DNA of 64,000 bases from an uncultured Candidatus Saccharibacteria bacterium (GCA_964481135.1 CAYZSW010000002.1:29283-93282), one strand, 5' to 3'; counted from the first letter of the stretch, positions 2,151 to 47,476 are shown. Notes: generated from the letters alone by a model not told the origin. Numbers and translations are program-made.

Positions 2151-2730
2151 ACTGATTAATAATTTCCATGACTTTTTTCTTGGTTTGTATTTTTGTTAAA
2201 TCGGTTGTATCAAGCAACTTAACATTTTTATATTTACTAAAACATTTTATTGTTCTTTCTCTAATAAAATCCCACTCTTTGTCTTTATAAGAAGTCATTT
2301 TTCCAGATCTCTTAAAAAGCCTATCAACTAATTGCTTAGATTTGCAATTCATAATAATAAATAAATCATTATTTGTAATTGGATTTTTTTTAGACAATTT
2401 TTTTGTCCAGTTTTTTATAATATCCCTCTTTTTCTTATTAATTTTTCCAACTTTATATAAAATATCTGCAAAAATAAATTCTTCTTCTAAATGTCTTTCA
2501 AAAATGGATATTTGGTTATTATTTTTATTAAGAGTATCTCTATCGGAATAATAAAGAGCAAAAAGCATAGAGCGAGTAAATCCGTCTTCTTTGACTTCAT
2601 CTGTTAAATTATCCCAAAAATCTTCTCTGACAATTTTTAATTTAGGATCTTTAATTGATTCAATAAATGTAGTTTTACCACTACAAACATCACCAATTAA
2701 ATAAATTCTTTTTATTTTTCCTTTTTGCAT
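2140..2730 (-). CDS. P-loop deoxynucleoside kinase-like protein
   Basis: Walker A IYLIGDVCSGKTTF, then FERHLEEEFIF (ERS-like) and a KRSGK lid-like segment; about 196 aa, as in the dNK/dGK family. Confidence 0.5.
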   Translation of the reverse strand: MQKGKIKRIYLIGDVCSGKTTFIESIKDPKLKIVREDFWDNLTDEVKEDGFTRSMLFALYYSDRDTLNKNNNQISIFERHLEEEFIFADILYKVGKINKKKRDIIKNWTKKLSKKNPITNNDLFIIMNCKSKQLVDRLFKRSGKMTSYKDKEWDFIRERTIKCFSKYKNVKLLDTTDLTKIQTKKKVMEIINQYVK

Positions 2731-11320: not shown

Positions 11321-11623
11321 ATGAAAAATATAATTGATGATATCAAAAACCAAGAAATGAGCGCGCAAAAAATTATTGATGATGCACAAAAAAATGCAAA
11401 ACAAAACTTAGAAAAAGAAAAAATGCTTATTACATCACAGGAAGAAACCGAACTAAAAAATCATCAAAAAGTTTTAGATGAATTTATTCAAACAGCAGAG
11501 AAAGAAGCTCAAAAAGAAACTGAAGAAATAAATAAAAATAAAAAAAATCAGATTGATCGCTTGTCTAAGATAGATATTGAAAATGGAACACAAATAGTTT
11601 TAAATGAAATTTTTAATATATAA
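11321..11623 (+). CDS. atpH: V/A-type ATPase small stator subunit (H/G-like)
   Basis: 100-aa charged coiled-coil protein in first position of the operon (archaeal-type order H-I-K-E-C-F-A-B-D); SD AAGAGGAAAT upstream. Confidence 0.5.
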   Translation: MKNIIDDIKNQEMSAQKIIDDAQKNAKQNLEKEKMLITSQEETELKNHQKVLDEFIQTAEKEAQKETEEINKNKKNQIDRLSKIDIENGTQIVLNEIFNI

Positions 11624-11633
11624 ATAGGATTAT

Positions 11634-13622: not shown

Positions 13623-13734
13623 AATTTAATAGTTATAATAGCCACCGATTCTTAATCACTGATAACACTGATAAATATAATAATTCAAATCTGTGAAATC
13701 CGTGTAAAAAGATCTGTGGTAAGAAAGGAATTAA

Positions 13735-14205
13735 ATGACATTAGGATTAGTTTTAGCAATCATTGGGGCAGCATTATCTGTAGTTTTAGCAGGTATTGGT
13801 TCGATTATTGGAGTAGGTCTTGCCGGTCAAGCAGGTGCAGGTATTACTTCAGAAGAACCTGAAAAATTTGGTAAAGTACTTCTTTTAGAAGCACTTCCTG
13901 GTACACAAGGTATATATGGATTTTTAGGTACCTTTTGGGTCATGATGAAAACACAATTGCTTTCTGGTGGCGTACAAATTGATACAAATACTGGTTTAGT
14001 GATTTTACTTTCATGTTTACCTGTTGCTCTTGCTGGTTTATTTTCAGGAATTTATCAAGGCAAGGTTTCTGTTGCAGGCATGAACATTGTTTCTAAACAA
14101 CCAGGTGATTCTGGTAAAGCTATTATTTTAGCTGTTATGGTAGAAACTTATGCTGTTCTTGGGCTTTTAGCCACTATCTTATTAATTAACGGCATACAAG
14201 TATAA
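13735..14205 (+). CDS. atpK: V/A-type ATPase proteolipid subunit K (c)
   Basis: 156 aa; duplicated hairpin proteolipid with a conserved Glu (VMVETYAVLGL). Confidence 0.9.
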   Translation: MTLGLVLAIIGAALSVVLAGIGSIIGVGLAGQAGAGITSEEPEKFGKVLLLEALPGTQGIYGFLGTFWVMMKTQLLSGGVQIDTNTGLVILLSCLPVALAGLFSGIYQGKVSVAGMNIVSKQPGDSGKAIILAVMVETYAVLGLLATILLINGIQV

Positions 14206-14221
14206 TAGAAAATTTTAAAAT

Positions 14222-14295
14222 AACAAATAACACTCGTCTCGACTCGGATGTCGATCCGAGGCGGGAATGACAAATAAATTACAATATCAAAACTA
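14222..14295 (+). promoter_or_regulatory. conserved intra-operon hairpin element (copy 1, before atpE)
   Basis: ACAAATAACA...GTCTCGACTCGG...hairpin CTCGGAT-GTCG-ATCCGAG...GGCGGGA...AAATTACAATATCAAAA; a near-copy at 18205-18285 shares motifs and order. Confidence 0.45.
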
Positions 14296-14364
14296 CAATC
14301 ACTAAAAATATTTAGAATTTATAAATTAATATTTTGAATTTATTGAAAGTTTGGTGATTATAAA

Positions 14365-14979
14365 TTGATATTTACTCCCTCAAGGAGTCATATGAGCTTA
14401 GAAGACATCAAAAAGAAAATTCTTGCAGACGCAAAACAACAAGCTGAGCAAATTACTAAAGACAGTAAAAACGAAATTTCTAATTTAAGAAAATCGTCTG
14501 AAGAAAAAATTAATGAAATCAAAAAGAAAAATACTGTAAAAGCTAAATATGAAGCTAAAAACAAAGCTAGAAGTATTTTAATTAGTACAAGTATTGAAGC
14601 CAAAAATGAAATATTAAAACAAAAGAGAACAATAATTGAAAAAATACTCAATAGTAGTATTAAAAAACTTGAAAATCTCCCAGATAATGAATATAAAAAA
14701 ATTATCGGTTTGCAGATGCAAAAGCTACAATCGCTAAATCTACAAAATATTAAAATCATACCTGTTAAAAATAAAAAAGAATTAATTAGCAATATAGCAA
14801 ATGAATTATTAAATAAAAAAGCTCAAATAGGTGAAGAAACGGATAGAATTAAAGGTGGTTTTCTAGTTGAATCAGATCAAACTATTATTGATTTTTCTTT
14901 TGAAAATTTAGTTAATGAATTAAAACCTCAGCTTGAAAAAAAATTATCTGCTAATTTGTTTAAAGGATTAAATGAGTAA
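14365..14979 (+). CDS. atpE: V/A-type ATPase subunit E
   Basis: 204-aa Lys/Glu-rich helical protein with C-terminal GGFLVESDQTIIDFSFENL, typical of E subunits; correct operon position. Confidence 0.8.
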   Translation: MIFTPSRSHMSLEDIKKKILADAKQQAEQITKDSKNEISNLRKSSEEKINEIKKKNTVKAKYEAKNKARSILISTSIEAKNEILKQKRTIIEKILNSSIKKLENLPDNEYKKIIGLQMQKLQSLNLQNIKIIPVKNKKELISNIANELLNKKAQIGEETDRIKGGFLVESDQTIIDFSFENLVNELKPQLEKKLSANLFKGLNE

Positions 14980-15982
14980 CGAAAATTATGCATTCGCTGT
15001 TGCCAATATTCGTTCGCAGGAAAAAAAATTGATACAAAAAAATCAATTAGAAAGATTAATTGATGCTCCAAACGCTTCTGCTTTTTTCGAATCATTGAAT
15101 GAAACAGCATACGCAAAACATTTTACGGAAACAAAAAATCCAGAAGATTATAGCGTAATCTTAGCCAAAACAATGTTAGAAACAAAAAATCTTTTAACTA
15201 AAATCTGCCCATATAAAGAAAATCTAAATTGGCTTTGGCTTAAATATGATTTTTTAAACATAAAATTTGCCATTAAAAATTATTTAACAAAAAACCAATT
15301 AAAACTTGAAGATTTTAATAATTTAGGTGAAATTAAACCTGAAAAAATTATAAAATATTTTGAAAAAAATGAAAAAAAGTCTTTACCCGTAAATATCGAA
15401 AAAATTATTCAAAAATCAATAAAAAAGTTTGAAAAAGAGAAAAACCCTAGCCAAATAGATGAAATACTGGACCAAGAATACTTCGTATGTTTGAGTTCTG
15501 AAATCAATAAGACAAATTCAAGGCAAATTAAAAATCTAATTAAAGCAAAAATTGATTTAAATAATTTAAAACTATTAATTCGATACAAATATCTAAAAAA
15601 AACAATTAATGAATTTGAAAAAAATATTTGCAAAGGTGGTACCATATCCACAAAAGATCTGAAAAATGCATTTGACTCAAATTTCGAGGATATTCAAAAA
15701 AATGCAAAATTTATTGATTATGATTTAATTTTAAAAGCAGGAATAAAGTATCTAATAGAAGAAAAATCATATTTGATTTTCGAAAAATTATCTTACGAAT
15801 ATTTTTTAGAAAAGCTTAGATTTGCCAAATATGAAGCATTTGGCGTAGAACCATTAATTGCTTTTTGGCTAGCAAAAGACAATGAAACAAATATTATTCA
15901 AATTATCATGATAGGAAAATTAAACAATATTGAACCAAAAATTATTCATCAACAATTACATAAATTATATACGGAAAAATAA
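14972..15982 (+). CDS. atpC: V/A-type ATPase subunit C (d)
   Basis: 336 aa all-helical; operon position between E and F; overlaps atpE by 8 nt. Confidence 0.75.
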   Translation: MSNENYAFAVANIRSQEKKLIQKNQLERLIDAPNASAFFESLNETAYAKHFTETKNPEDYSVILAKTMLETKNLLTKICPYKENLNWLWLKYDFLNIKFAIKNYLTKNQLKLEDFNNLGEIKPEKIIKYFEKNEKKSLPVNIEKIIQKSIKKFEKEKNPSQIDEILDQEYFVCLSSEINKTNSRQIKNLIKAKIDLNNLKLLIRYKYLKKTINEFEKNICKGGTISTKDLKNAFDSNFEDIQKNAKFIDYDLILKAGIKYLIEEKSYLIFEKLSYEYFLEKLRFAKYEAFGVEPLIAFWLAKDNETNIIQIIMIGKLNNIEPKIIHQQLHKLYTEK

Positions 15983-16029
15983 TTTTAAATAAACTGGTAT
16001 TTCTAAAATAAGCTTTAATATAAATCATT

Positions 16030-16377
16030 ATGAACAATATAAATAATACAAAAGATAAAGAAATTATAATTATTGGAAAAGAAAATGTTGTATCATGTTT
16101 TCGTTTTTTAGGATTCAAAACATTATATATAAACGAAAAAAATGCCTTAGACAAATTTCTACAATTAAAACAAAACATTGAAAATTACGGAATCATTTAT
16201 ATAACTGAAGATTTTTATAATATATTAAAAGAAGAAATTGAAAAAATTTCACAAAAGGTTATGCCAGCAATTGTACTGATACCAAATAATTCTGGTAGTC
16301 AAAACATTGCCTACAACATGATGAAAAAAACTGTTGAACAGGCAGCTGGGTCAGACATCTTATCCAATAAAAATTAG
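16030..16377 (+). CDS. atpF: V/A-type ATPase subunit F
   Basis: 115 aa; IIIIGKENVVSCFRFLGF...IIYITEDF...PAIVLIPN pattern of F subunits. Confidence 0.75.
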   Translation: MNNINNTKDKEIIIIGKENVVSCFRFLGFKTLYINEKNALDKFLQLKQNIENYGIIYITEDFYNILKEEIEKISQKVMPAIVLIPNNSGSQNIAYNMMKKTVEQAAGSDILSNKN

Positions 16378-16424
16378 CCAAAAGCTAATAGCAAATCGCT
16401 AGTAGCTTCAACATAGGAGTTTAC

Positions 16425-18191
16425 ATGAATGGAAAAATTTCAAAAGTATCAGGACCGCTAGTAATAGCTAAAAATCTAGAAGGCGCTAGAATGTACGATG
16501 TAGCCAAAGTTTCTAAAGAAAAACTTATTGGCGAAATTATTCAAATAGATCAAGATCAAGTATCAATTCAAGTATATGAAGATACCGCTGGTCTTGGACC
16601 TAACGAAGAGGTAGAAACAACTAATATCCCTCTTTCTGTAACTTTAGGGCCAGGTCTAATTAGTTCAATTTATGACGGTATCCAACGCCCACTTGAATTA
16701 ATGCAAAAAAAAGCTGGAGCTTATATTACTCGAGGAATCGAAGTCCCAAAACTTGATTTAAATAAAAAATGGAAATTCAAACCGCTAGTTAAAACAGGTG
16801 ATAAAGTAGAAGGTGGCGATATAATTGGAGAAGTAGATGAAACATCTTTAATTAAACACAAAATCATGGTTCCACCTAGTATTAAAAATGGCACAATTAA
16901 AGATATTAAATCTGGTGAATACACTGTGCAAGATATAATTGCTGTAGTCCTGACAAAAGATAAAGAAGAATCAATAAAGATGATGCAAGAATGGCCAATT
17001 CGTAAAGCTAGACCATACAAAGATAAAATTGTTCCGAAAACGCCACTTGTAACTGGCCAAAGAATTATTGATACCTTTTTTCCAATCGCTAAAGGTGGAA
17101 CCGCTTGCGTACCTGGTCCTTTTGGATCCGGTAAAACTGTTGTTCAGCACCAACTTGCCAAATGGGCAGATGCCGATATTATTATCTTTATTGGCTGTGG
17201 TGAAAGAGGAAATGAAATGACAGATGTACTACAAGAATTCCCAGAACTTAAGGATCCAAAATCTGGCGAACCACTTATGAAAAGAACTGTTTTAATCGCT
17301 AACACATCAAATATGCCAGTAGCTGCTCGTGAGGCTTCAATTTATACTGGAGTTACTATTGGAGAATATTTTAGAGATATGGGTTACAAAGTTGCACTTA
17401 TGGCTGACTCAACTAGTCGTTGGGCAGAAGCACTCCGTGAAATGTCAGGTCGTCTAGAAGAAATGCCTGGCGAAGAAGGATATCCAGCTTATTTAGGATC
17501 AAGAACAGCAACTTTTTATGAAAGATCAGGACAAGTTAAGTGCGCCGGATCTCAAGAACGCCAAGGATCTTTAACATTAGTTGGAGCTGTTTCTCCTCCT
17601 GGTGGTGATCTTTCTGAACCAGTAACTCAAAATACTTTAAGATGCGTAAAGGTTTTTTGGGGTCTTGATGCATCACTTGCATATAAAAGACACTTCCCTG
17701 CCATTAATTGGCTTGATAGTTATTCTTTATATATTGATGATATTCAAGATTATATTAAAAAAGAAGTTTCTGAGAATTGGTTTAATCTAAGAACAGAAGC
17801 AATGGACTTACTCCAAAAAGAAGAAGCTTTGCAAGAAATCGTTCGTCTTGTAGGAGTTGAATCGCTTTCTGCTTCAGATCAGTTAACGCTAGAAACTGCA
17901 AAAAGTATTCGAGAAGATTATCTTATGCAAAACGCTTTTGATGATACAGATACCTATACTTCTCTACCAAAACAAGCTAAAATGCTAGAAGTAATTATTA
18001 AACTTCATCAAAAAAGAACAGAAATTATTAAAACCAATACCGAAATTGAACTAAAAAAATTATTTGGCCAAATAGAAAATTCACCGATGTATCAAATAAA
18101 TCAAGATATTGCTAAAATGAAATTTATCCCTGAAAAAGAAATAAATAAATATGACGAATTAATTGAAAAAATAGAAAAAACAGAAATATAA
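16425..18191 (+). CDS. atpA: V/A-type ATPase catalytic subunit A
   Basis: 588 aa; Walker A GPFGSGKTV, plus the non-homologous insert region typical of A subunits; no intein (length normal). Confidence 0.97.
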   Translation: MNGKISKVSGPLVIAKNLEGARMYDVAKVSKEKLIGEIIQIDQDQVSIQVYEDTAGLGPNEEVETTNIPLSVTLGPGLISSIYDGIQRPLELMQKKAGAYITRGIEVPKLDLNKKWKFKPLVKTGDKVEGGDIIGEVDETSLIKHKIMVPPSIKNGTIKDIKSGEYTVQDIIAVVLTKDKEESIKMMQEWPIRKARPYKDKIVPKTPLVTGQRIIDTFFPIAKGGTACVPGPFGSGKTVVQHQLAKWADADIIIFIGCGERGNEMTDVLQEFPELKDPKSGEPLMKRTVLIANTSNMPVAAREASIYTGVTIGEYFRDMGYKVALMADSTSRWAEALREMSGRLEEMPGEEGYPAYLGSRTATFYERSGQVKCAGSQERQGSLTLVGAVSPPGGDLSEPVTQNTLRCVKVFWGLDASLAYKRHFPAINWLDSYSLYIDDIQDYIKKEVSENWFNLRTEAMDLLQKEEALQEIVRLVGVESLSASDQLTLETAKSIREDYLMQNAFDDTDTYTSLPKQAKMLEVIIKLHQKRTEIIKTNTEIELKKLFGQIENSPMYQINQDIAKMKFIPEKEINKYDELIEKIEKTEI

Positions 18192-18204
18192 TATAAAAAT
18201 TACA

Positions 18205-18285
18205 AATAACAAATTACAAATTTCCAATATCAAACCTGTCTCGACTTGGTCGAGCCAAGGCGGATAAATTACAATGATCAAAATC
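18205..18285 (+). promoter_or_regulatory. conserved intra-operon hairpin element (copy 2, before atpB)
   Basis: ACAAATAACA...GTCTCGACTTGG-TCGAG-CCAAGGCGGATAAATTACAATGATCAAAA; hairpin CTCGAC-TTG-GTCGAG. Confidence 0.45.
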
Positions 18286-18376
18286 CAAATATATTAATAA
18301 TTTAAGAATTGAGATTTGAAAAATTATTTATAATTTGGTGCTTGAGATTTGCTATTTATTCCTGAAAGGAATCTAT

Positions 18377-19879
18377 ATGCAAAAAGAATACAAAACAATT
18401 AAATCAATAAGCGGACCTCTAGTTTTAGTGGATAAAACCATAGATATTAAATACGAAGAAATGGTTGAAATCGAATTACCAAGTGGCGAAAAAAGAAGAG
18501 GTAAGGTTTTAGAAATCAACGAAGACAAAGCTCTTGTACAAATGTTTGAGGGCTCATCGGAAATTCTTCCATCAGAAACTAAAGTAAAATTTTTAGGCAA
18601 AACTGCAAAAATTTCCGTTTCAGAAGAAATGCTAGGTAGAGTTTTTTCTGGAGCAGGAAAACCTATTGACGGTGGAGCTGAAATCATTGCTGACCAAGAG
18701 CTAGACATCAATGGTAACCCTTTAAATCCATATGCCAGAAATTATCCAAACGATTTTATTCAAACAGGAATTTCAACTATAGATGGATTAAATACTCTAG
18801 TTAGAGGACAAAAATTACCTATTTTTTCCGGCTCTGGTTTGCCTCACTCCCGTTTAGCTACCCAAATTGCTCGTCAAGCCAAAGTGATTGGCAAAGCCAA
18901 TCATCCTGAGCGATCCTCTGGCGGAGAGTCGAAGGATCTTAATAGAAAAGATGAAAAAGAGAAATTTGCTGTAGTATTTGCAGCTATGGGTATTACTTTT
19001 GAAGAAGCGAACTATTTTATTGAAGATTTTAAAAAAACCGGCGCTATTGAAAAATCAGTACTTTTCATTAATTTAGCAAATGATCCGGTTGTAGAGCGTA
19101 TTTCTACCCCTCGCTTGGCATTAACCTGCGCTGAATATTTAGCATATGAAAAAGGAATGCATGTGCTAGTAATATTGACTGATCTAACAAATTATTGCGA
19201 GGCTTTAAGAGAAATATCTGCAGCGCGTAAAGAGGTGCCTGGCCGTCGTGGCTATCCAGGATATTTATACACCGATCTCTCAACACTCTATGAAAGAGCT
19301 GGAAGAATCAAAGGAAAAGAAGGTTCTATTACTCAAATTCCGATTTTAACTATGCCTGAAGATGATAAAACTCATCCTATCCCAGATTTAACCGGTTACA
19401 TTACTGAAGGACAAATTATGCTTTCCCGCCAATTATACAATACCGGCGCAATGCCTCCTGTTGATGTTTTACCATCTTTATCTCGTCTAAAAGACAAGGG
19501 CATTGGTGAAGGCAAAACAAGAGAAGATCATTCTCAAGTATTGAATCAATTGTTTGCATCATACGCTAGAGGCAAAGAAGCAAAAGAGCTTGCTGTTATT
19601 CTTGGAGAAGCAGCACTTTCTGATGTTGATAAAAAATTCGTAGAATTTGCTAATCGATTTGAAAAAGAATTTGTATCGCAAGGCGAAAATGAAGATAGAA
19701 CTATTATTGAAACTCTTGATTTAGGATGGAAATTAATGAGCATTATTCCAGTTTCAGAACTTAAGCGTCTTAAACCAGATATGATCGCTAAGTATATGCC
19801 ACGGACAGAGTCCGAACGTAAAACTCAAAACGAAAAAGTTAAAACAGAAGAAAAAGAAAGAAAAAATAAATTAACCTAA
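18377..19879 (+). CDS. atpB: V/A-type ATPase subunit B
   Basis: Start placed at ATG 18377 with SD AAAGGAA. The ORF-track start at 18335 is a [17 protein letters not shown]...FSGSGLPH...[10 protein letters not shown]. Contains a GC-richer ~25-aa insert ([24 protein letters not shown]) and a Lys/Glu-rich C-terminal tail. Confidence 0.95.
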
Positions 19880-19890
19880 TTAATCTAATT

Positions 19891-19935
19891 TCCCCGCCTG
19901 CCAATCGCTTGAAGCGATAGCTAATGGCGGGCAGG
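19891..19935. repeat. GC-rich nested palindromic element (family member E1) just after the atpB stop
   Basis: CCCCGCCTGCC-A-ATCGC-TTGAA-GCGAT-AGCTAATGGCG-GGCAGG: outer CCTGCC/GGCAGG and inner ATCGC/GCGAT inverted repeats; shares the CCCGCCTGCC motif with 44745 and 59291. Confidence 0.6.
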
Positions 19936-20113
19936 TAATTAACCTAAATAAGTTCCAATATTCAATGACTAAATAAAAATATTTTTAAGAAATTAGGATT
20001 TAAGATTTATTTAGAATAATTAGGTTAATTAGAGCAATTAGAAATTTTAATAAAATTTATTATTAGATTAAAATTATCAATTTAAAAACAAATGGTATTA
20101 AAGGAAACATAGT

Positions 20114-20752
20114 ATGAAACTAAAGGTTAACCCAACCCGTATGGAACTACTGCGCTTAAAACGTCGTCTTAAAATTGCTCAAAAAGGCCACAAACTTTTA
20201 AAAGAAAAACGAGACGGTCTTATGAAAGAATTCATGGAAATAATCAAACTTGCTCAGAAAACAAGAGAGGAAATGGAACAAAAGCTTTCAATTTCATTTA
20301 AAGCATATGTTATTGCAGCTTCAAACACCAACAAGCAAGCACTTAAAACTGCCTCTATTCTTCCATCACAAAAAATTAACCTTAAATTCACTACAAAAAA
20401 TGTTATGAGCGTTCAAATTCCAAAGATCCAAATAGAAAGATCTGGCAATTGGCTTTCTTATGGATTTTACGATACATCTGGTGAACTCGATAGAGCTATT
20501 GAGAATCTACAAGATGTTGTTGAAGTTATGATAAAACTTGCAGAAATTGAAAAAGGATCACAGCTTATGGCGGCAGAAATAGAAAAAACCCGTCGTAGAG
20601 TTAATGCACTTGAACATGTTATGATTCCAAACCTAAAAGAAACCATCAAATATATCCAGATGAAACTTTCTGAACAAGAAAGATCTACGATAACTACAAC
20701 TATGATAGTTAAAGAAATAATCCAGCAACAAGAACAAAATATTTCTAATTGA
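20114..20752 (+). CDS. atpD: V/A-type ATPase subunit D
   Basis: 212 aa; MKLKVNPTRMELLRLKRRLKIAQKGHKLLKEKRDGL, typical D-subunit N-terminus; SD AAGGAAACAT upstream. Confidence 0.9.
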   Translation: MKLKVNPTRMELLRLKRRLKIAQKGHKLLKEKRDGLMKEFMEIIKLAQKTREEMEQKLSISFKAYVIAASNTNKQALKTASILPSQKINLKFTTKNVMSVQIPKIQIERSGNWLSYGFYDTSGELDRAIENLQDVVEVMIKLAEIEKGSQLMAAEIEKTRRRVNALEHVMIPNLKETIKYIQMKLSEQERSTITTTMIVKEIIQQQEQNISN

Positions 20753-20849: not shown

Positions 20850-22496
20850 ATGAAAGCGAAGGTGAAAATTATGGCAACCACCATATTCGAAGTTCTAGGT
20901 GGACTTATGCTATTTTTGTTTGGAATAAACTTTATGGAAAAAGGCCTAAAAAGTTTTTCACCCCATAAAACAAAGAAAATCCTTAAACTATTCACAAAAA
21001 ATAAAGTTTTTGGAATGTTCACAGGATTAAGTGTCACAGCAATCATCCAAAGTTCTTCCGCAACGACTGTAATGTTAGTTGGACTGGTTAGCGCCGGCAT
21101 GATAGCATTCGAGGCAACTTTGCCAGTGATACTAGGGGCTAATATCGGCACCACAATTACTGCGCAACTAATCGCATTTAAATTAACAAAATATTCCTTG
21201 ATGATTGTTAGTTTTGGTGGTTTATTTTTGATTTTTTTATCAAAAAATGAAAAACTAAAACAATTTGGACAAATTGTGTTTGGATTTGGTATGCTTTTTC
21301 ATGGCTTAAATATTATGGCAAGTTCAATGAAAGCATACGAAAATGCCGAATATGTTAGACAACTCTTTATAAGTTTTGGCCAATATCCAATTTACGCTGT
21401 TCTACTAGGAATAATCGCAACTGTAATGTTTCAGTCAAGCAGTGTTACAATTGGTATTACCATAACGCTTGCATCAACTGGATTTATCCCAATAGAAAGT
21501 GCTGTGCCAATAATTCTAGGTGAAAATATTGGAACCTGCATTACTGCAATACTAGCCAGTATTAATAAAAAGACACCAGCCAAAAGAGTAGCATACTCTC
21601 ATGCGCTCTTTAATACTATTGGCGTAATAATTGCTCTGTGTTTTCTGCAATATTTTGTTAGATTCGCAACTTGGAGCTCAACAAATATTGCCAGACAAAT
21701 TGCTAACACCCACACATTCTTTAATATTTGTATTACATTGCTATTTTTACCTTTTACTGATTATTTTGCATTATTAGTAAAAAAAATATTGCCGGAAAAA
21801 GATTTAGAAGATGATGCGTCAAAACCAAAATATCTAGATGATAATCTTCTAGAAACTCCCTCTCTGGCTATAACTGCCATAACATACGAAATTTCAAGAA
21901 TTCTTGAAATAACACAAACTATGATTGATATTGTATATAAATCGATTGAATCCAAAGACCCCGCAGATCTTGCAAAAATAGAAATAATCGAAGAAAACGC
22001 AGATAATCTACAAAAAACAGTAATTGAGTATTTAGTTAAACTAAATGCCAAAAAACTTGACGAAAACCAAGCAAATATTGCAACTGCTCTTTCTCGCCTG
22101 GTAAATGACGCCGAAAGATCAGCAGACAAAGGATTCAATCTGTCCAAACTCACTCAAAGACTTATTAATAATCAATTAACTTTAAGCGATCAAGCATGTG
22201 ATGAACTAAAAAACATTTACGAAAAAATATCACAAATGGTTGACACTACACAAAAGGCATTTAGAGATTCAGAATACGACCTTACTAAAAAAATATATTT
22301 ACTTGAAAATGAAATAAACTATCTCGTAAGAGAGTATAATGACGCTCATATGACACGACTTTGCTCAGGAATATGTCAACCTGAAGCTGGCTATATTTTC
22401 ACAGAAATCCTCGAACAATTTGAAAAAATTGGCGATGATATGAATAACTTCGCTGATGCCATAAAAGAAAAAATTGCACCACATAACAATCAATAG
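20850..22496 (+). CDS. Na+/phosphate cotransporter (NptA-like) with C-terminal PhoU-like domain
   Basis: Two repeated Na/Pi-cotransporter membrane domains (QSSSATTVMLVGL...; QSSSVTIGITITL...), followed by a soluble helical PhoU-like C-terminal half. Confidence 0.85.
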   Translation: MKAKVKIMATTIFEVLGGLMLFLFGINFMEKGLKSFSPHKTKKILKLFTKNKVFGMFTGLSVTAIIQSSSATTVMLVGLVSAGMIAFEATLPVILGANIGTTITAQLIAFKLTKYSLMIVSFGGLFLIFLSKNEKLKQFGQIVFGFGMLFHGLNIMASSMKAYENAEYVRQLFISFGQYPIYAVLLGIIATVMFQSSSVTIGITITLASTGFIPIESAVPIILGENIGTCITAILASINKKTPAKRVAYSHALFNTIGVIIALCFLQYFVRFATWSSTNIARQIANTHTFFNICITLLFLPFTDYFALLVKKILPEKDLEDDASKPKYLDDNLLETPSLAITAITYEISRILEITQTMIDIVYKSIESKDPADLAKIEIIEENADNLQKTVIEYLVKLNAKKLDENQANIATALSRLVNDAERSADKGFNLSKLTQRLINNQLTLSDQACDELKNIYEKISQMVDTTQKAFRDSEYDLTKKIYLLENEINYLVREYNDAHMTRLCSGICQPEAGYIFTEILEQFEKIGDDMNNFADAIKEKIAPHNNQ

Positions 22497-24308: not shown

Positions 24309-24322
24309 ACTAAACATCACAA

Positions 24323-24357
24323 ACCGCGTGAGTACGATTCACGCGGTCTTTTTTTTA
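24323..24357 (+). terminator. rho-independent terminator of the small ORF
   Basis: ACCGCGTGA-GTACGAT-TCACGCGGT perfect 9-bp stem followed by CTTTTTTTTT. Confidence 0.8.
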
Positions 24358-24499: not shown

Positions 24500-27400
24500 C
24501 TATTTACTTGTCTGAGTTTTCTTTAAATATTCCATCACTTCTTGATATTTTTCATCCGTTATCTTTTGATATTCCTTAAGTATCTCAAGCACATCAGTTA
24601 ATTTTAAAAGTGATGTAAGCTTATATCCTTTTTTCGCCAAATTCTTACCCCCTCCCTGTTCTCTATCTAATACTACAACTACATCTTTAACCTTCATCCC
24701 AGCTTTTTTCATTGGCTCAATATTCTCAAACTTACTTCCACCATCTGTAATCATATCATCAATAATAATACATCTATCGCCTTTTTTATAAACTCCTTCT
24801 ATTTTTCTACCCGTACCATAAGATTTAGTTTCTCGTCTGGCATAAATCATTGGTTTATTTAAAATCCTTGACATATGAACTGTAATTGGAAGTGCTGTAT
24901 ATGGAACACCTGCCATAATATCAAACTTAATATTTTTTACTAGATTTGTCATTTCTTTGGCAATTTGTTCCATTAAATCTGGGTAAGAAACTAGCGGTCT
25001 TAAATCAATGTAAATTGGTGATTTAAGTCCTGACTTTAAAGTAAAATTACCAAATTTAATTGCTTCTTTGCTAAATAAATCTAGTACTAATTTTGCGGTT
25101 TTATGTTTATTAATTTCATCACGCAATTGTTTGGTTTTTATTCTAGAAGCTTGGGCAAAATCTTTGCCACTTGATGCATAAATAATACCACGAGCAGAAT
25201 TTATTATCATTCCAAAACCTTCGGAATTCATTCCATTTTGTACCACTTCTGCCACAGATCCACCCTGCTTACCAACTCCTGGAACTAAGAATTCCATATC
25301 TGGTGCTGCTTGACGAATTTCAGCTAACTCCTCTGGATATGTTGCGCCTGCTACCATTAAAAGATTGCCATTAGTATTCCACTGGTCTCTTACTTTTTCG
25401 AGCATGTGCATATAAACCGGTTTACCATTTACATCTTTTATATCTTGAATATCACGCGCACCAGGATTTGATGAACGAACCACCACTATAACACCTTTAT
25501 CCTTATACTTAGCAAACGGTTCAATACAATCATGCCCCATATAACCATTTACAGTTGAAGCATCAAAACCGAATGTTTCAAAAATCGCCTTAGCATATGC
25601 CTCATTAGTATTGCCAATATCACCCCTTTTAGCATCAACAATAATTGGTACACCTTTTTTGTGAGCATATTCCACTGTTTTTTTCAGAGCATCTAAAGTT
25701 TCATCTGCCTCATAAAAAGCAAAATTTGGTTTATAGGCACATACTAAATCAGCTGTGGCATCAATAACAGCTTTATTAAATTGATACACTCCTTGTGAAT
25801 TTTTAGCTAACCCTTCTGGTAATTTACTAATTGATGTGTCGAGCCCCACACAAACCATTGAATTATTCTCTCTTTGTTTTTTCCTAAGCATTTCTAAAAA
25901 TGTCATATTTTTCCTTTCTTCCCCCCTGCCCGCCATCGCAAGCCTAACTTGCTCGCTTACACACCTACGAGGTGAAAGAAGTTCCACTCCTCGTAGGTGG
26001 TTTACGATTATATTTGTATTTAATTCTAATGTTCCTCTTAATTTATTAATATCATCAATATTATTATTGTGTAAATATTCTTCTATTCCTTTAACAATTT
26101 CTTGCGTAATCTTTGGGTTCAAATAATTAGCAGTTCCAACAGATACTGCAGTTGCTCCAGCCACAATAAACTCTAAAGCATCTTGCGCATTTGATATTCC
26201 ACCCATGGCAATAATTGGTATTTTTACTGCTTGATAAACCTGATGAACCATTCTTAATGCCACCGGTTTTACAGCTGGACCCGATAATCCCCCGGTATTA
26301 TTGGTTAAAATCGGTTTTCTCTGATCCAGATTAATTGCCATTCCCATTAAAGTATTAATAAGTGATACAACATCAGCACCACCATCTTCTGCTGCCTTTG
26401 CACAGGCCTTAATATCTGTCACATTAGGAGAAAGTTTCACAATAATTGGTTTATTTGTTACTTGCCGAATTTTTTGAGTCACGAGTTTAATCTCGTATGG
26501 ATCAGTTCCAATTGCCATACCAGTATGCACATTTGGACAGGAAAAATTCAATTCCAAATAATCAATTTTTTTTTCTTTATCTAGTATCTTTGCAAGTTGA
26601 ATATATTCTTTTGAATCTTTACCGGCAATCGATATAATAAGCGGTAAAAAAACCTTATTCACACCTACGAGGTGTGAACTTCTTTCACCTCGTAGATGAA
26701 TAAGTTTTGGCAATTCATTTTTAATAAAATCTTTTACCCCAGAATTTTTGAGCCCTACAGCATTTAGCATTCCACCTTCAACTTTTATCATTGTCGGCGG
26801 CTTATGTCCCTCTCGAGGTTCAAGCGTAATAGTTTTGCAAGTTAAGGCGCCAAGTTTTTTTTCATTAAGATTTTTCGAACTTGGCCAATCTACTCCATAA
26901 GTACCCGATGCAGTGGTTACCGGATTTTGCCAAGTTATCCCCGCAATCTCAACTGATAAATTTGGTTTATTTTTCATTATAAATTTAACTTCCTTGCCTT
27001 TTACCTTATCAAAAATTCTACCTCTGTCAAATACAACATTTCCATTTACGATTGTCATGATTGGCCAACCCTTTAATTTTTTGTCAACGAATGGACTCCA
27101 CCCGCATTTTGTATAAAGTTTTTGATTATTTACTTTTTTAATTAAATTCAAATCAATTATTGTTAAATCAGCATCATTTCCAATTTTTACTTCACCCTTA
27201 TTTTTAATCCCAAATATTTTCACAGAATTTTTACAAATTAAATCAATAATTTTATTTAATGATATTTTCTTTTTGTTATAAGCATCTAATAAAAGTGGCA
27301 ACATTGTTTCTACGCCAGGAACTCCAAAAGGACTGTCATCTTTTGTTTTTTCTTCCCTGGTATGAGGCGCGTGATCTGTTCCAATTGTATCAACTATCCC

Positions 27401-28183
27401 CTCATCAATCGCCTGCCAAAGCGCTTTTTGATCCTCTTTTGTTTTAAGTGACGGTTTCATCTTCACAAAATTATTTTCATCTTTTTGAGTTAAAAATAAA
27501 TGGTGCGGTGTTACTTCTACAAATAATTTGCCTGCTTTACGCAACCTTTGTGCAATAGAATTATTTCTAATGTAATCTATCTCGTTTTTTGATGAAATAT
27601 GACATAAATATAAGCAAGTTCCTGTTATTTTAGTTAAGTTGATTGCTTTTTTCACCATCTCACCTTCTGCATGCACAGCTACCATTCTAGAATTTTTCCA
27701 AATTTCTAGTAAAGTATAATCATCTTCAATCATCATTTTTCCGGTTGAAAGATTCATGAAAACTTTAGTTGCAGCAACATTTTTAACTGTTTGAATTGCA
27801 TCAATATTATCCATGCTCGAACCAAAATAAAATCCATAGTTTACCAAACTTTTTTCCGATGATATTTTTCGCTTATTTTTTAGGTCATCTAATAATAACA
27901 TTGGTGGATTATTATTGGGCATATCAAGCACTGTTGTAATTCCTCCTGTAACTGCAGCTTTTGAACCGCTTTGCCAATCCTCTTTATAACTATCCAAAAA
28001 ATCGCGAAAATGAACATGCGAGTCAATAATTCCTGGTAAAATAACCTTGCCATTTAAATTAATAGTTCTATTTGCATAAGATAATTTTTTATTTATATCA
28101 AAAATTTTTCCATCTTTAATTTGGATGTTTATTTTTTTTAGCCCCTCCATCCAAACATAACCTCCCACTAGATTGGTTTTCAT
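24500..28183 (-). CDS. four-domain pyrimidine-biosynthesis fusion protein: dihydroorotase (PyrC) - dihydroorotate dehydrogenase (PyrD) - OMP decarboxylase (PyrF) - orotate phosphoribosyltransferase (PyrE)
   Basis: 1227 aa. aa ~40-400: DHOase (GIIDSHVHFRD...TDHAPH). aa ~410-720: DHODH (VEIAGITWQNPVTTASGTYG, NFSCPNV, GGISNAQDALEFIVAGATAVSVGTA). aa ~770-990: OMPdecase (MVCVGLDTS, KPNFAFYEA, VDAKRGDIGNT). aa ~1000-1227: OPRTase (FKSGLKSPIYIDLR, IIDDMITDGGS). Start ATG overlaps the pyrI stop (ATGA). Two palindromic-element insertions in frame (25915-26000; 26654-26704). Confidence 0.9.
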   Translation of the reverse strand: MKTNLVGGYVWMEGLKKINIQIKDGKIFDINKKLSYANRTINLNGKVILPGIIDSHVHFRDFLDSYKEDWQSGSKAAVTGGITTVLDMPNNNPPMLLLDDLKNKRKISSEKSLVNYGFYFGSSMDNIDAIQTVKNVAATKVFMNLSTGKMMIEDDYTLLEIWKNSRMVAVHAEGEMVKKAINLTKITGTCLYLCHISSKNEIDYIRNNSIAQRLRKAGKLFVEVTPHHLFLTQKDENNFVKMKPSLKTKEDQKALWQAIDEGIVDTIGTDHAPHTREEKTKDDSPFGVPGVETMLPLLLDAYNKKKISLNKIIDLICKNSVKIFGIKNKGEVKIGNDADLTIIDLNLIKKVNNQKLYTKCGWSPFVDKKLKGWPIMTIVNGNVVFDRGRIFDKVKGKEVKFIMKNKPNLSVEIAGITWQNPVTTASGTYGVDWPSSKNLNEKKLGALTCKTITLEPREGHKPPTMIKVEGGMLNAVGLKNSGVKDFIKNELPKLIHLRGERSSHLVGVNKVFLPLIISIAGKDSKEYIQLAKILDKEKKIDYLELNFSCPNVHTGMAIGTDPYEIKLVTQKIRQVTNKPIIVKLSPNVTDIKACAKAAEDGGADVVSLINTLMGMAINLDQRKPILTNNTGGLSGPAVKPVALRMVHQVYQAVKIPIIAMGGISNAQDALEFIVAGATAVSVGTANYLNPKITQEIVKGIEEYLHNNNIDDINKLRGTLELNTNIIVNHLRGVELLSPRRCVSEQVRLAMAGRGEERKNMTFLEMLRKKQRENNSMVCVGLDTSISKLPEGLAKNSQGVYQFNKAVIDATADLVCAYKPNFAFYEADETLDALKKTVEYAHKKGVPIIVDAKRGDIGNTNEAYAKAIFETFGFDASTVNGYMGHDCIEPFAKYKDKGVIVVVRSSNPGARDIQDIKDVNGKPVYMHMLEKVRDQWNTNGNLLMVAGATYPEELAEIRQAAPDMEFLVPGVGKQGGSVAEVVQNGMNSEGFGMIINSARGIIYASSGKDFAQASRIKTKQLRDEINKHKTAKLVLDLFSKEAIKFGNFTLKSGLKSPIYIDLRPLVSYPDLMEQIAKEMTNLVKNIKFDIMAGVPYTALPITVHMSRILNKPMIYARRETKSYGTGRKIEGVYKKGDRCIIIDDMITDGGSKFENIEPMKKAGMKVKDVVVVLDREQGGGKNLAKKGYKLTSLLKLTDVLEILKEYQKITDEKYQEVMEYLKKTQTSK
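25915..26000. repeat. GC-rich palindromic element E2, in frame inside the fusion CDS (PyrD-PyrF linker)
   Basis: CCCCCCTGCCCGCCATCGCAAGC-CTAA-CTTGC...CACCTACGAGG-(16 nt)-CCTCGTAGGTG (11-bp perfect IR). Encodes HLRGVELLSPRRCVSEQVRLAMAGRGEE. The left module is repeated at 44715; the IR module at 26654. Confidence 0.7.
26654..26704. repeat. 51-bp palindromic element E3, in frame inside the PyrD domain
   Basis: CTTATTCA-CACCTACGAGGTG-TGAACTTCTTT-CACCTCGTAG-A-TGAATAAG; arms about 20 bp; 51 bp = 17 codons (…HLRGERSSHLVGVNK…). Confidence 0.7.
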
Positions 28184-28647
28184 AAATAATTAATATCCTT
28201 TTCAACAAATTCTCTTTCACAAAAATGACATTTTATTGTTAAAGGTTTTTTTTCAATAACATAAAACTTTGATACGAGCGTATGTGGTTCTAAATAAGAT
28301 ATACATTTTGGATTAGGACATTTAATAATTCCTAAAAGTTCGTTTTGAAGCTTTAAATTATATTTTTTAATTACTTTAGAATTCTTAACAATATTTATTG
28401 TTGAATCAGGAACAAGAAGTGCTATTCTATTTAATTCATTCTGAGTAAATATCTTCTTATCAACTTTAATAATATCTTTTCTCCCTAATTTTTTTGAACT
28501 AAAATTAACACCTAGCATTATTTTTTCACCATTAGGTAAATTAAGTAAATCCAAAATTTTTAATGACTTCCCGGCAGGAATATGATCTATTACAGTACCA
28601 CTTTCAATTGGAGAAACTGCAAGTAAATTTTTTGATGTTTTTTTCAT
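28180..28647 (-). CDS. pyrI: aspartate carbamoyltransferase regulatory subunit PyrI
   Basis: Zn domain CPNPKCISY...CHFCEREF. I prefer the ATG at 28645-28647 (MKKTSKN), which overlaps the pyrB stop as ATGA; the ORF track's longer start is at 28671. Confidence 0.85.
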   Translation of the reverse strand: MKKTSKNLLAVSPIESGTVIDHIPAGKSLKILDLLNLPNGEKIMLGVNFSSKKLGRKDIIKVDKKIFTQNELNRIALLVPDSTINIVKNSKVIKKYNLKLQNELLGIIKCPNPKCISYLEPHTLVSKFYVIEKKPLTIKCHFCEREFVEKDINYL

Positions 28648-29585
28648 TTTACTACCCCCATCGTAAGGCATAAAAGCGCCTTTCTTACTGGTATTCCATT
28701 GGCTGCTTGTCGAAAATAAACAGCATGTTTTGTTTTATCAACATCAGTACTGATTTCATTAACTCGAGGCAAAGGATGCATAATTTTTAAATTTTGATTT
28801 GCATTTTCTAAAAGTTTTTTATCCAATACAAATATTCCCTTATATTTTTCATATTCAGCTTCATCGGGAAATCTTTCTTTCTGAATACGAGTCATATAAA
28901 GCACATTTAACTTAGGAATAAATTTACTCAACTGCTCTGTCTGGTAAAATTTAAGATTTTTCTGTTTTACTAATTTTTTGTATGTTTGAGGAATAGATAA
29001 GGCATCTGGTGCAATAAAATAAAAGGTTGTTTTAAAATGCGACATAGCTCTTACTAACGAATGTGTAGTTCTGCCATATTTTAAATCACCAGCCAATCCA
29101 ATATGTAAATTTTCAAGCGTTCCTAGTTCTTTTTTGATGGTATACAAATCAAGCATTGTTTGAGTTGGATGTTCGTTAGATCCATCTCCTGAATTTAAAA
29201 AAGGTTTATCTGTAGATTCTGCAGCCAACCTTGCTGAACCCTCTATAAAATGCCTCATCACAATAACATCCGCATAGGATTCTACCATTTTTATAGTATC
29301 AAACACACTTTCCCCTTTGGATGCAGAACTTGATTTTGCAGATGAAAATCCATTTACAAGCCCGCCTAATTGTTTCATGGCTGAATGGAAAGACAACCTA
29401 GTTCTAGTAGATGATTCATAAAACATTGATGCCATAATTTTATTTTTTAAATATTGTTTATGTTTTTTTCCATCAAATTTTTTAGCAGTGTCTAAAACAT
29501 GTAATATTTCCTGCTTAGAAAAATCATTAATCGATACAATATCTTTTTTCGTCCATCGAAATGATTTTTTTGATCTAGTTTTCAT
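28644..29585 (-). CDS. pyrB: aspartate carbamoyltransferase catalytic subunit PyrB
   Basis: STRTRLSF carbamoyl-P motif, HPLPR, 313 aa; directly coupled to pyrI. Confidence 0.9.
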   Translation of the reverse strand: MKTRSKKSFRWTKKDIVSINDFSKQEILHVLDTAKKFDGKKHKQYLKNKIMASMFYESSTRTRLSFHSAMKQLGGLVNGFSSAKSSSASKGESVFDTIKMVESYADVIVMRHFIEGSARLAAESTDKPFLNSGDGSNEHPTQTMLDLYTIKKELGTLENLHIGLAGDLKYGRTTHSLVRAMSHFKTTFYFIAPDALSIPQTYKKLVKQKNLKFYQTEQLSKFIPKLNVLYMTRIQKERFPDEAEYEKYKGIFVLDKKLLENANQNLKIMHPLPRVNEISTDVDKTKHAVYFRQAANGIPVRKALLCLTMGVVK

Positions 29586-29609
29586 TTTTTCTCCTAGATA
29601 ATATTTATT

Positions 29610-30566
29610 TTATTTATTAATTTTAAGTAACCAAAGCATAATTGCTTTTTGTATGTGCAACCGATTTTCTGCCTGATCAAATACTATTGAATTTTTGCCA
29701 TCAATAACATCTTCTGTTTGTTCCATGCCTCGCATAGCAGGTAAGCAATTCATAAAAATGACATTATCTTTAGCATAAGATAAAACTTTTTCTGTAACTT
29801 GATATGGCTTTAATTTTTTTATTCTTGTATTAGCTTTCTTAGGATCAACATGATAACTCATCCAGGAATCAGTATAAATAACATCGGCACCAGTAGCTGA
29901 TTTCTGCACATCATGAGATACTTCAATTTTTACATTTGTTTTTTTTGCAATATTTCTAGCAATATCTACAATTTCAGTTTTTGGCATAAATTCTTTATCT
30001 TTTGGGCAAACTGCCACCATGTCTATCCCCATAAGTGCACAACCATGCATAAGAGAATAAGTAACATTATTTTCACAATCACCAAAATAAACTAATTTTA
30101 GTTTTTTAAAACTTTTCTTTTTCTCAAGTATTGTTAGTAAATCTCCTAAAATCTGACACGGATGATTTTCGTCTGATAGTGCATCTATTACTGGAATACT
30201 AGCATTCTGAGCTAGTTTTTTAATATCAGAAAATTTAAACATTCTAGCCATTATAATATCAACATATCTAGATACAGTTTTGGCTGTATCCTCTATCGTT
30301 TCCTTTTTTCCAAGAGGTGAAGTTGAAACATCATAATATATCGCATGACCACCTAATTGTGTCATACCAACTTCAAAACTGACCCTAGTCCTAAGTGATG
30401 GTTTTTCAAAAATCATTAAAAGTGTTTTATCTTTTAAAGCATGCTTAAATTTTTTCGGATTTTGTTTAATCTTTTTTGCTAAATTAATAACAAACAGAGC
30501 GTCTTTTGAACTTAGATTAGCCAAAGAAAGCAAATGTTTATTTTCATGTTTCATTTTTTCCTCCAT
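29610..30566 (-). CDS. ornithine carbamoyltransferase-like (anabolic or catabolic OTCase)
   Basis: SLRTRVSFE, HPCQILGDLL (HPxQ), DVIYTDSWMS, FMNCLPA (HCLP-like). Probable true start M5 (MKHEN) with SD GGAGGA. Terminator-like hairpin AAAAAAAAGGAACTA-ATAGTTCCTTTTTTT at about 30575-30600 separates it from uvrD. Confidence 0.75.
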   Translation of the reverse strand: MEEKMKHENKHLLSLANLSSKDALFVINLAKKIKQNPKKFKHALKDKTLLMIFEKPSLRTRVSFEVGMTQLGGHAIYYDVSTSPLGKKETIEDTAKTVSRYVDIIMARMFKFSDIKKLAQNASIPVIDALSDENHPCQILGDLLTILEKKKSFKKLKLVYFGDCENNVTYSLMHGCALMGIDMVAVCPKDKEFMPKTEIVDIARNIAKKTNVKIEVSHDVQKSATGADVIYTDSWMSYHVDPKKANTRIKKLKPYQVTEKVLSYAKDNVIFMNCLPAMRGMEQTEDVIDGKNSIVFDQAENRLHIQKAIMLWLLKINK

Positions 30567-30707
30567 AAAAAAAAGGAACTAATAGTTCCTTTTTTTAAAA
30601 TAATATATAATATTTTTTTTAATATGTTTTTGCACTTTTTTGCTCCATTTTTTACATTTAAATTAAATATATACTATAAATAATATTTGTCAAATTGTGT
30701 AAAAAGT

Positions 30708-47400: not shown

Positions 47401-47476
47401 GCGTGTGTAGCTCAGTGGTTAGAGCGCCACCCTTATAAGGTGGAGGTCGAGGGTTCAATTCCCTCCACACGTACCA
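47401..47476 (+). tRNA. tRNA-Ile with anticodon TAT (reads AUA), CCA encoded
   Basis: Hand fold: acceptor GCGUGUG/CACACGU (G1-U72), U8 A9, D-stem GCUC/GAGC, anticodon stem CCACC/GGUGG with loop CUUAUAA (U34 A35 U36), T-arm GAGGG-UUCAAUU-CCCUC, disc A, CCA. Followed by the terminator hairpin at 47483-47508. Confidence 0.75.

Follow-up and report, generated by a model that had tools for sequence, protein, structure and literature searches.

In animals the consecutive enzymes of pyrimidine synthesis are covalently linked in two sets, the CAD protein with carbamoyl-phosphate synthetase (CPSase), aspartate transcarbamylase (ATCase) and dihydroorotase (DHOase), and UMPS with orotate phosphoribosyltransferase (OPRT) and orotidine monophosphate decarboxylase (OMPDC), while the dihydroorotate dehydrogenase (DHODH) is a separate mitochondrial class-2 enzyme. 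The opposite domain order, OMPDC-OPRT, is known from kinetoplastids, oomycetes, diatoms and certain cyanobacteria (PMC2705460). The stretch of 64,000 nucleotides analysed here, referred to as the window throughout (GCA_964481135.1, CAYZSW010000002.1:29283-93282, from an uncultured Candidatus Saccharibacteria bacterium), encodes a single protein of 1227 amino acids (aa), in which DHOase (PyrC), DHODH (PyrD), OMPDC (PyrF) and OPRT (PyrE) follow one another. The gene stands at the end of an operon OTC-pyrB-pyrI-pyrCDFE, behind the genes for an ornithine carbamoyltransferase (OTC) and for the catalytic and regulatory chains of ATCase (PyrB and PyrI). Very probably this is a genuine four-enzyme chain of a bacterium of the candidate phyla radiation (CPR; Patescibacteria), which arose stepwise and belongs to an operon that would lead from carbamoyl phosphate to UMP.

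The presence and the order of the four domains, originally predicted from motifs, were borne out by domain annotation with the hidden Markov models of Pfam and NCBIfam. The N-terminal domain matched dihydroorotase over aa 13-400 (Amidohydro_1; TIGR00857, 309.9 bits versus a cutoff of 279.05), and its metal ligands H56/H58, K140, H171 and H195 and the catalytic D270 aligned with those of the M. jannaschii-like 7uof and of P. gingivalis 2gwn. The HxH motif, the bridging Lys, two His and the Asp are those of a dihydroorotase of the carboxylated-Lys type of the amidohydrolase superfamily, and the domain also aligned in one stretch with the DHOase domain of human CAD (E about 1e-50). The class-1 label of the second domain (DHO_dh, aa 407-719; NF005574, 382.7 bits versus 269) holds and can be sharpened to class-1B-like, the PyrD subunit of L. 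lactis DHODH B (1ep1_A, E=4e-72) being closer to it than DHODH A (1jqx, 3e-27). PyrF is an OMPDC of type 2 (OMPdecase; TIGR02127, pyrF_sub2, 238.7 bits versus 110.6) with the motif D850-A-K852-R-G-D855 intact, and PyrE aligned with human OPRT 2wns (7e-48) as well as with 3qw4. The catalytic motifs of all four domains are intact. Judged by its sequence, the single chain carries four competent-looking active sites, and its translation is coupled to that of the ATCase genes.

The C-terminal part of the protein corresponds to the bifunctional OMPDC-OPRT or 'reverse UMPS' of Leishmania (3QW4). PyrF precedes PyrE in both, aa 760-1220 of the fusion are colinear with 3qw4_B from end to end, the inter-domain linker included (E=1e-102), and the DAKRGD motif and the phosphoribosyl pyrophosphate (PRPP) loop are conserved. 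Likewise, aa 760-1217 cover positions 1-475 of the 478 of the profile for this architecture (NF004034 / PRK05500). In the window protein, however, this module forms only the C-terminal 40%, with PyrC and PyrD at its N-terminus. Like the animal proteins, the chain links consecutive pyrimidine enzymes covalently; it is neither a CAD, having no CPSase or ATCase domain, nor a UMPS, having DHODH and DHOase besides; the ATCase of the window remains a separate PyrB/PyrI pair. Instead, the fusion joins steps 3, 4, 6 and 5 of the pathway across the boundary between CAD and UMPS, the DHODH step included.

A frameshift or sequencing error might have created an artificial fusion, or the gene might be a decaying pseudogene, yet we hold either to be extremely improbable. 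Six contigs encode the identical product of 1227 aa, which comes from at least three separate assemblies and samples, with NCBI and JGI also among the sources; in the three places compared (ERZ27252295, ERZ27252304 and SRR10872647) it has the same neighbours. A protein of 75% identity (P0002; ERZ23498683, locus L012) has the same uninterrupted in-frame junction between PyrC and PyrD, KGKEVNFIMRTRPNLS. When genome contigs were scanned with the fusion protein, a 74%-identical fragment of 4.5 kb was found in the metagenome-assembled genome CSMAG_1580, which aligned with P0002 without differences where the two overlap; otherwise the scan gave irrelevant Dehalococcoidia pyrC genes. Furthermore, the gene extends over 3.7 kb without a stop codon at 31% GC, and every catalytic motif is conserved. 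Two apparently selfish palindromic elements within the gene, described below, would fit a decaying gene, but both are in frame and located in loops or linkers.

Several observations nevertheless weigh against the chain as read here. The PyrC of P0002 is without its first approximately 140 residues, HxH included, and non-homologous sequence is found in their place (L012 1-340, at the contig end); P0002 may be a chimeric scaffold, or be truncated with a possibly defective DHOase domain, and this 5' end is also the point that speaks for an artefact. In the window protein, PyrE scored 167.8 bits with the OPRT equivalog NF010382, below the cutoff of 208, and the F-E part scored 336.5 bits with the curated bifunctional equivalog NF004034, below 656. 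To these should be added the lack of a nearby pyrK and the old start site within the chain, both of which are taken up below.

The original prediction held that the known fusions CAD, UMPS and PyrD-PyrK do not combine these four enzymes, and the databases agree. Two libraries, with about 15 billion proteins behind them, were searched, one of 5.8 billion clusters at 90% identity by a word-indexed search and one of 1.84 billion representatives at 50% identity by HMMER (query aa 14-1213). Among the 74 matches at E <= 1e-20 in the former, all four domains were present only in the window protein (P0001) and P0002; the best 150 matches in the latter included no further four-domain protein, the cluster of the window protein being represented there by the three-domain P0003. 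Literature searches gave no described C-D-F-E fusion and no paper on pyr fusions of DPANN archaea or CPR bacteria. As far as these searches reach, the combination is undescribed and confined to a single CPR lineage.

The chain does not stand isolated among pyrimidine fusions, since the F-E module is established, D-F-E occurs in relatives and other fusions exist in DPANN and CPR organisms. The latter include PyrC-PyrD (P0009, Woesearchaeota), PyrC-PyrE-PyrF (P0006 / KHO50923.1, archaeon GW2011_AR16), PyrC-PyrD-PyrE (P0007), PyrK-PyrC (P0010), PyrC-PyrB-PyrD (P0013), PyrD-PyrF-PyrE (P0003 and P0004), proteins with PyrB and PyrC domains joined (P0015-P0019, order not mapped) and, among the fusions around the window lineage, C-D with the Fe-S domain of PyrK. 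Their domains are homologous to those of the window protein (30-72% identity), the organisms are similar in their small genomes and groundwater-type habitats, and the same operon logic, pyrB-pyrI-fusion, is found in locus L071. In neither database search, however, did any of them unite C, D, F and E.

The relatives indicate how the chain may have arisen. P0003 (locus L013) and P0004 (locus L070), both 72% identical to the window protein, are products of separate PyrD-F-E genes whose first codon is that of the PyrD Met; in the same frame, L013 has a stop 9 codons upstream of this Met and L070 one 3 codons upstream, and ahead of the stops is the apparent C-terminus of a separate pyrC. In the window protein and in P0002 the old Met of PyrD is kept, as Met403 in the context FIM-KNKPNLS. 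Proteins of the F-E type, 430-500 aa in length, were numerous in the HMMER scan of the representatives. The simplest history would be F-E, then D-F-E, then C-D-F-E. The starting point would have been a pre-existing PyrF-PyrE bifunctional module; PyrD would have joined next, giving the PyrD-F-E that two relatives still encode as a gene of its own, and PyrC would have joined last by loss of the stop codon between pyrC and pyrDFE, the former intergenic spacer and the initiator Met of PyrD becoming the present linker. Because vestigial start signals are kept, the polarity appears to be fusion and not fission, and the mechanism is probably a commonplace one, ordinary loss of a stop codon between neighbour genes. 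As to the surroundings of the separate pyrDFE genes, the gene directly downstream in L013 (2509-3921) encodes a 470-aa protein whose sole domain is a C-terminal PEP-utilizer (phosphohistidine swivel), and that in L070 (2418-3494) an unannotated product that is cut off.

The vestigial start at Met403 leads to another explanation, in which the open reading frame (ORF) is real and yet the cell mainly makes separate polypeptides, by internal initiation at Met403 or by cleavage in the disordered 40-aa linker between PyrD and PyrF, so that the fusion would mean little beyond co-expression. Met403 and the Shine-Dalgarno-like relic ahead of it could give a D-F-E product, the Shine-Dalgarno-like AAAGGAAGT is likewise kept in L012, disorder is predicted for the D-F linker as well as for both loops encoded by the palindromic elements, and close relatives function with pyrC apart from pyrDFE. 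We consider this explanation quite improbable: the junction is open and in frame in two lineages 25% apart in protein sequence, the ATGA coupling is at the start of PyrC and not at Met403, and there is no hint of a protease site.

The single chain is the last of four cistrons, OTC, pyrB, pyrI and the fusion gene, which are taken as one transcription unit because nothing separates them (Table 1). The OTC gene predicted directly upstream of pyrB passes the equivalog model TIGR00658; its start is likely at 30554, with GGAGG ahead, and not at 30566, and the gap of 24 nt between OTC and pyrB includes AGGAG. The translational coupling described originally is visible in the sequence at both places, the stop of pyrB overlapping the start of pyrI in the ATGA at 28647-28644 and the stop of pyrI overlapping the start of the fusion in the ATGA at 28183-28180. 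pyrI starts at the second ATG in the longest ORF, with a GGGGG Shine-Dalgarno sequence 8 nt upstream, and PyrI has the four-Cys Zn-site sequence CPNPKC...CHFC. Six steps of UMP synthesis had been assigned to the three coupled cistrons; the number is five (steps 2 to 6, ATCase and the four enzymes of the chain), step 1, the synthesis of carbamoyl phosphate, having no gene among them, while the four steps in one chain stand. The GC content of the operon (0.318) equals that of the window (0.312).

Table 1. Features of the pyr operon and other genes of the window. Coordinates are counted from the first letter of the 64,000-nt window; the operon is on the minus strand.
Feature	Coordinates	Strand	Details
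Promoter-like site TTGACA-16-TATATT	30666..30693	(-)	upstream of OTC gene; 11/12 consensus positions match
Hairpin A7-stem-loop-T8 AAAAAAAGGAACTATTAGTTCCTTTTTTTT	30567..30596	(-)	ends 2 nt before ATGGAGG bearing the OTC Shine-Dalgarno sequence
OTC gene	29610..30554	(-)	TIGR00658, 377.3 bits vs cutoff 280.85; Giardia/DPANN subfamily
pyrB, ATCase catalytic chain	28644..29585	(-)	TIGR00670, 369.8 bits vs 236.95
pyrI, ATCase regulatory chain	28180..28647	(-)	TIGR00240, 159.8 bits vs 148.55
pyrC-pyrD-pyrF-pyrE fusion gene	24500..28183	(-)	1227 aa, single frame
PyrC domain	26984..28183	(-)	aa 1-400; HVH 56-58, Lys140, His171, His195, Asp270
C-D junction FIMKNKPN	26960..26983	(-)	vestigial PyrD initiator Met403; AAGGAAG Shine-Dalgarno-like relic 11 nt upstream
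PyrD domain, class-1B-like	26027..26974	(-)	aa 404-719; catalytic Cys549 in NFSCPNV
Palindromic element copy 1	26663..26698	(-)	in frame, HLRGERSSHLVG; -21 kcal/mol, z -5.7
PyrD-PyrF linker	25907..26026	(-)	aa 720-759 (40 aa); 27 aa longer than that of P0002
Palindromic element copy 2	25961..25999	(-)	in frame, opposite orientation, HLRGVELLSPRRC, inside the D-F linker; -22.7 kcal/mol, z -4.0
PyrF domain, OMPDC type 2	25148..25906	(-)	aa 760-1012; DAKRGD at 850-855
PyrE domain, OPRT	24515..25102	(-)	aa 1028-1223 (Pribosyltran); PRPP loop IIIDDMITDGGS
Terminator-like GC hairpin, bidirectional	24321..24349	(-)	~150 nt past fusion stop codon
Deoxynucleoside kinase (dNK) gene	2140-2730	(-)	
V/A-type ATPase operon	11321-20752	(+)	complete: subunits I, K/c, E?, C, F, A, B, D
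Na/Pi cotransporter-PhoU fusion	20850-22496		adjoins V/A-type ATPase operon
tRNA-Ile	47401-47476	(+)	anticodon UAU
Glutamate decarboxylase	60391-61788	(-)	TIGR01788, 657 bits
GadC-like glutamate/GABA antiporter	62140-63543	(-)	below cutoff

For the control of the operon, the promoter-like site is weak evidence, as the AT-rich region holds 42 such sites against a chance expectation of 37.7. The terminator-like hairpin positioned between this site and the Shine-Dalgarno sequence of OTC may act as an attenuator in a pyr-type leader, or may be no more than the terminator of uvrD; a scan of the window with Rfam matched no PyrR-type or other leader element.

The operon would convert carbamoyl phosphate and aspartate to UMP, and its last four enzymes would be made in a fixed 1:1:1:1 stoichiometry. 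Because OMPDC, OPRT and class-1 DHODH are dimeric enzymes, a homodimer or larger assembly is the most likely state of the chain. AlphaFold2, run on an alignment of 23 sequences, gave a predicted template modelling score (pTM) of 0.50, with a predicted local distance difference score (pLDDT) of about 90 or higher throughout PyrC, a good core of PyrD, moderate values for PyrF and PyrE, and values below 50 for the D-F linker, which is predicted to be disordered. This model gave no confident inter-domain geometry or packing. The original prediction that the fusion channels intermediates found no support, since the order C-D-F-E differs from the reaction order C-D-E-F and the model places the domains without confidence; channelling by the chain is speculation.

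The PyrD domain also raises the question of its electron acceptor. Class-1B DHODH normally passes electrons to NAD+ through its partner subunit PyrK (FAD, 2Fe-2S). In the region examined for neighbour genes, the window with about 10 kb of each flank (~84 kb in total), no pyrK was detected (no protein with PF10418 or PF00175; best tblastn E = 0.01), while relatives do carry PyrK, even joined to PyrC (P0010 and P0008). Most likely a pyrK lies elsewhere in the genome; alternatively, PyrD may use another acceptor in place of PyrK.

For the first substrate of the operon, the OTC gene is of interest. Its product has the variant motifs SLRTR (for STRTR), HPCQ, DSWMSYH (for DxWxSMG) and NCLP (for HCLP) of an OTC subfamily, and SLRTR, DSWMSYH and NCLP are conserved in nearly all of the 120 closest homologues (P0245-P0364). 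Assignment as putrescine or acetylornithine transcarbamylase was rejected on the scores (TIGR04384, 300.9 versus 500; NF003384, 173.8 versus 288). The best match in the Protein Data Bank was the OTC of Giardia lamblia (3grf_A, E=1e-86), which has the same motifs and is a catabolic enzyme, serving the arginine dihydrolase pathway (cOTC in PMC9506655). The three motifs are thus common to a large DPANN/CPR subfamily of OTC and to the catabolic OTC of a eukaryote, a hint that the Giardia enzyme and the DPANN/CPR clade share an origin. For both OTC and the PyrC part, the nearest homologues bearing a name were mostly those of DPANN archaea (Woesearchaeota, Micrarchaeota, Diapherotrites and Nanoarchaeota), which suggests that the module may have been exchanged between DPANN archaea and CPR bacteria. 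A protein 68% identical to the window OTC (P0249; L067 4653-5585) is encoded within a sugar/nonulosonic-acid cluster with NeuB, epimerases, a DegT aminotransferase and a Carbam_trans protein, suggesting a different use of the carbamoyltransferase in that organism.

It was originally proposed that carbamoyl phosphate for ATCase may come from citrulline phosphorolysis (a route of the arginine-deiminase type) and not from CPSase, in view of the lack of carAB in the window. This lack extends to the flanks, where Pfam context and tblastn detected none of carA, carB, arcC, argG and argH in the ~84 kb. Circumstantial evidence for the proposal comes from the cOTC motifs, from a homologue in Patescibacteria (P0290; GCA_043798935.1), whose OTC gene directly follows arcC (carbamate kinase, TIGR00746, 393.5 versus 358.25), and from the related operon in L071 (that of P0007), pyrB-pyrI-pyrCDE-pyrF-carA-carB, compared with which the window operon is without carAB and begins with OTC. 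A precedent is Thermococcus kodakarensis, which is without CPSase and in which deletion of arcB (OTC) or arcE leads to severe growth defects in the absence of pyrimidines, deletion of arcC having little effect (PMC13260591). With this ArcE-ArcB system, the arginine deiminase pathway and the cOTC of Giardia, the window shares an OTC of the Giardia subfamily, the absence of carAB nearby and a pathway in need of carbamoyl phosphate (PMC13260591); it differs in that OTC shares an operon with pyrBI, which would couple OTC directly to ATCase, and in that ArcA, ArcE and ArcC were not found in the ~84 kb around it.

The failure to find arcA, arcE and arcC counts against the proposal, and so do the size of the region examined, ~84 kb where the whole genome probably has close to 1 Mb, and the possibility of an anabolic or simply co-regulated role of OTC. 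Moreover, the equilibrium of OTC favours citrulline synthesis, and the route therefore needs a pull from ATCase and the irreversible steps downstream. OTC may instead be an ordinary consumer of carbamoyl phosphate like ATCase, making citrulline or arginine and grouped with pyrBI because both use carbamoyl phosphate supplied by carAB, or by carbamate kinase in reverse, from elsewhere in the genome. TIGR00658 does not separate anabolic from catabolic enzymes, the OTC of P. furiosus is also a strong match (1a1s, 4e-77), and the operon of P0007 shows that this family of pathways can use CPSase. On the other side, the arginine genes argG and argH are missing nearby together with carA, carB and arcC, the subfamily motifs agree with the Giardia catabolic enzyme, a homologue adjoins arcC, and CPR bacteria are usually without arginine biosynthesis. 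An ordinary consuming OTC is a possible but rather doubtful explanation; supply of carbamoyl phosphate by the co-transcribed catabolic-type OTC through citrulline phosphorolysis, in place of CPSase, is one that we favour only tentatively and at slightly less than even confidence.

A farther-reaching view would combine this supply with the question of PyrK, the operon being a self-contained module for UMP synthesis from citrulline and aspartate, exchanged between DPANN and CPR organisms and operating without CPSase. The catabolic OTC of the Giardia/DPANN type would hand carbamoyl phosphate directly to ATCase, the four-enzyme chain would take the product on to UMP, and its class-1B-type DHODH would work without PyrK, with a different electron acceptor. 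We regard such a module as unlikely; if it were real, an otherwise nucleotide-scavenging symbiont would gain de novo pyrimidines from a single imported amino acid.

The palindromic element within the fusion gene was analysed in its own right. Copy 1 corresponds to 12 aa inserted in PyrD by comparison with PyrDB of L. lactis, a disordered loop in the AlphaFold2 prediction; P0003 has this copy in a diverged form, whereas P0002 and P0004 do not have it. A metagenome scan with a 20-mer common to both copies gave 49 loci (L018-L066) in 34 distinct contexts, mostly from groundwater datasets, with the consensus of a 39-bp (13-codon) palindrome CACCTCCGAGGTG-AAAGAAGTTCM-CACCTCGGAGGTG (-24.4 kcal/mol, z -6.6). 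In as many as 31 of the 34 contexts the element is surrounded by an ORF of at least about 200 aa, which stays open through it in several frames and in different orientations (TSEVKEVHTSEV, HLRGERSSHLGG, TSEVGTSFTSEV and HLRGVNFFHLGG). Among the host ORFs are those of LeuRS (two different genes), RecJ, MgsA, TsaD, a radical-SAM protein and a glycosyltransferase. In the stem the window copies differ by a compensatory change, CTACGAGG/CCTCGTAG replacing CTCCGAGG/CCTCGGAG. The element is thus multi-copy, palindromic, a multiple of 3 in length, free of stop codons and inserted in unrelated ORFs, as are in-frame palindromic repeats.

By these properties it may be a selfish repeat of the Rickettsia-palindromic-element type in CPR bacteria. 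Like the Rickettsia elements, it is short and multi-copy, occupies housekeeping genes in frame and in either orientation, and is tolerated where it falls in loops; unlike these, it is much shorter (13 codons), unrelated in sequence and found in CPR-type groundwater bacteria. A literature search gave no description of a CPR palindromic element. The element was also considered as the cause of the D-F fusion and rejected, because P0002 and P0004 have D and F fused without it.

The remainder of the window agrees with a CPR host. It encodes DnaB, DnaX, UvrD, GatCA, a sortase, FtsH, an L,D-transpeptidase and a V/A-type ATPase operon at ~31% GC; the NAD-dependent ligase gene (LigA) is just outside, and the flanks of ~10 kb carry housekeeping genes only. 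The closest named homologues of FtsH, 62-71% identical, belong to Patescibacteria, Berkelbacteria and Nealsonbacteria, which places the host among the CPR bacteria. The deoxynucleoside kinase gene indicates nucleoside salvage besides de novo UMP synthesis. The V/A-type ATPase operon is complete and is adjoined by a fusion of an Na/Pi cotransporter with PhoU. Glutamate decarboxylase and the adjoining GadC-like antiporter constitute an acid-resistance or proton-motive decarboxylation system. The tRNA-Ile with the anticodon UAU is unusual, since in bacteria the AUA codon is normally read by a CAU tRNA modified with lysidine.

Of all fusions detected in this analysis or otherwise known to us, the window protein is the only single chain that joins the four steps from dihydroorotase to UMP, and it bridges the divide between CAD and UMPS with the redox step included. 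F-E, D-F-E and C-D-F-E form a natural series, in which the making of multi-enzyme proteins by stop-codon loss, and any kinetic benefit of such fusion, can be studied. The orphan PyrD of the 1B type poses a question as to its electron acceptor, the operon link between OTC and pyrBI offers a testable hypothesis on the supply of carbamoyl phosphate without CPSase, and the 39-bp element is a possible new example of selfish DNA within essential genes. CPR bacteria are usually regarded as nucleotide scavengers; the operon described here indicates that some of them retain the de novo synthesis of UMP.

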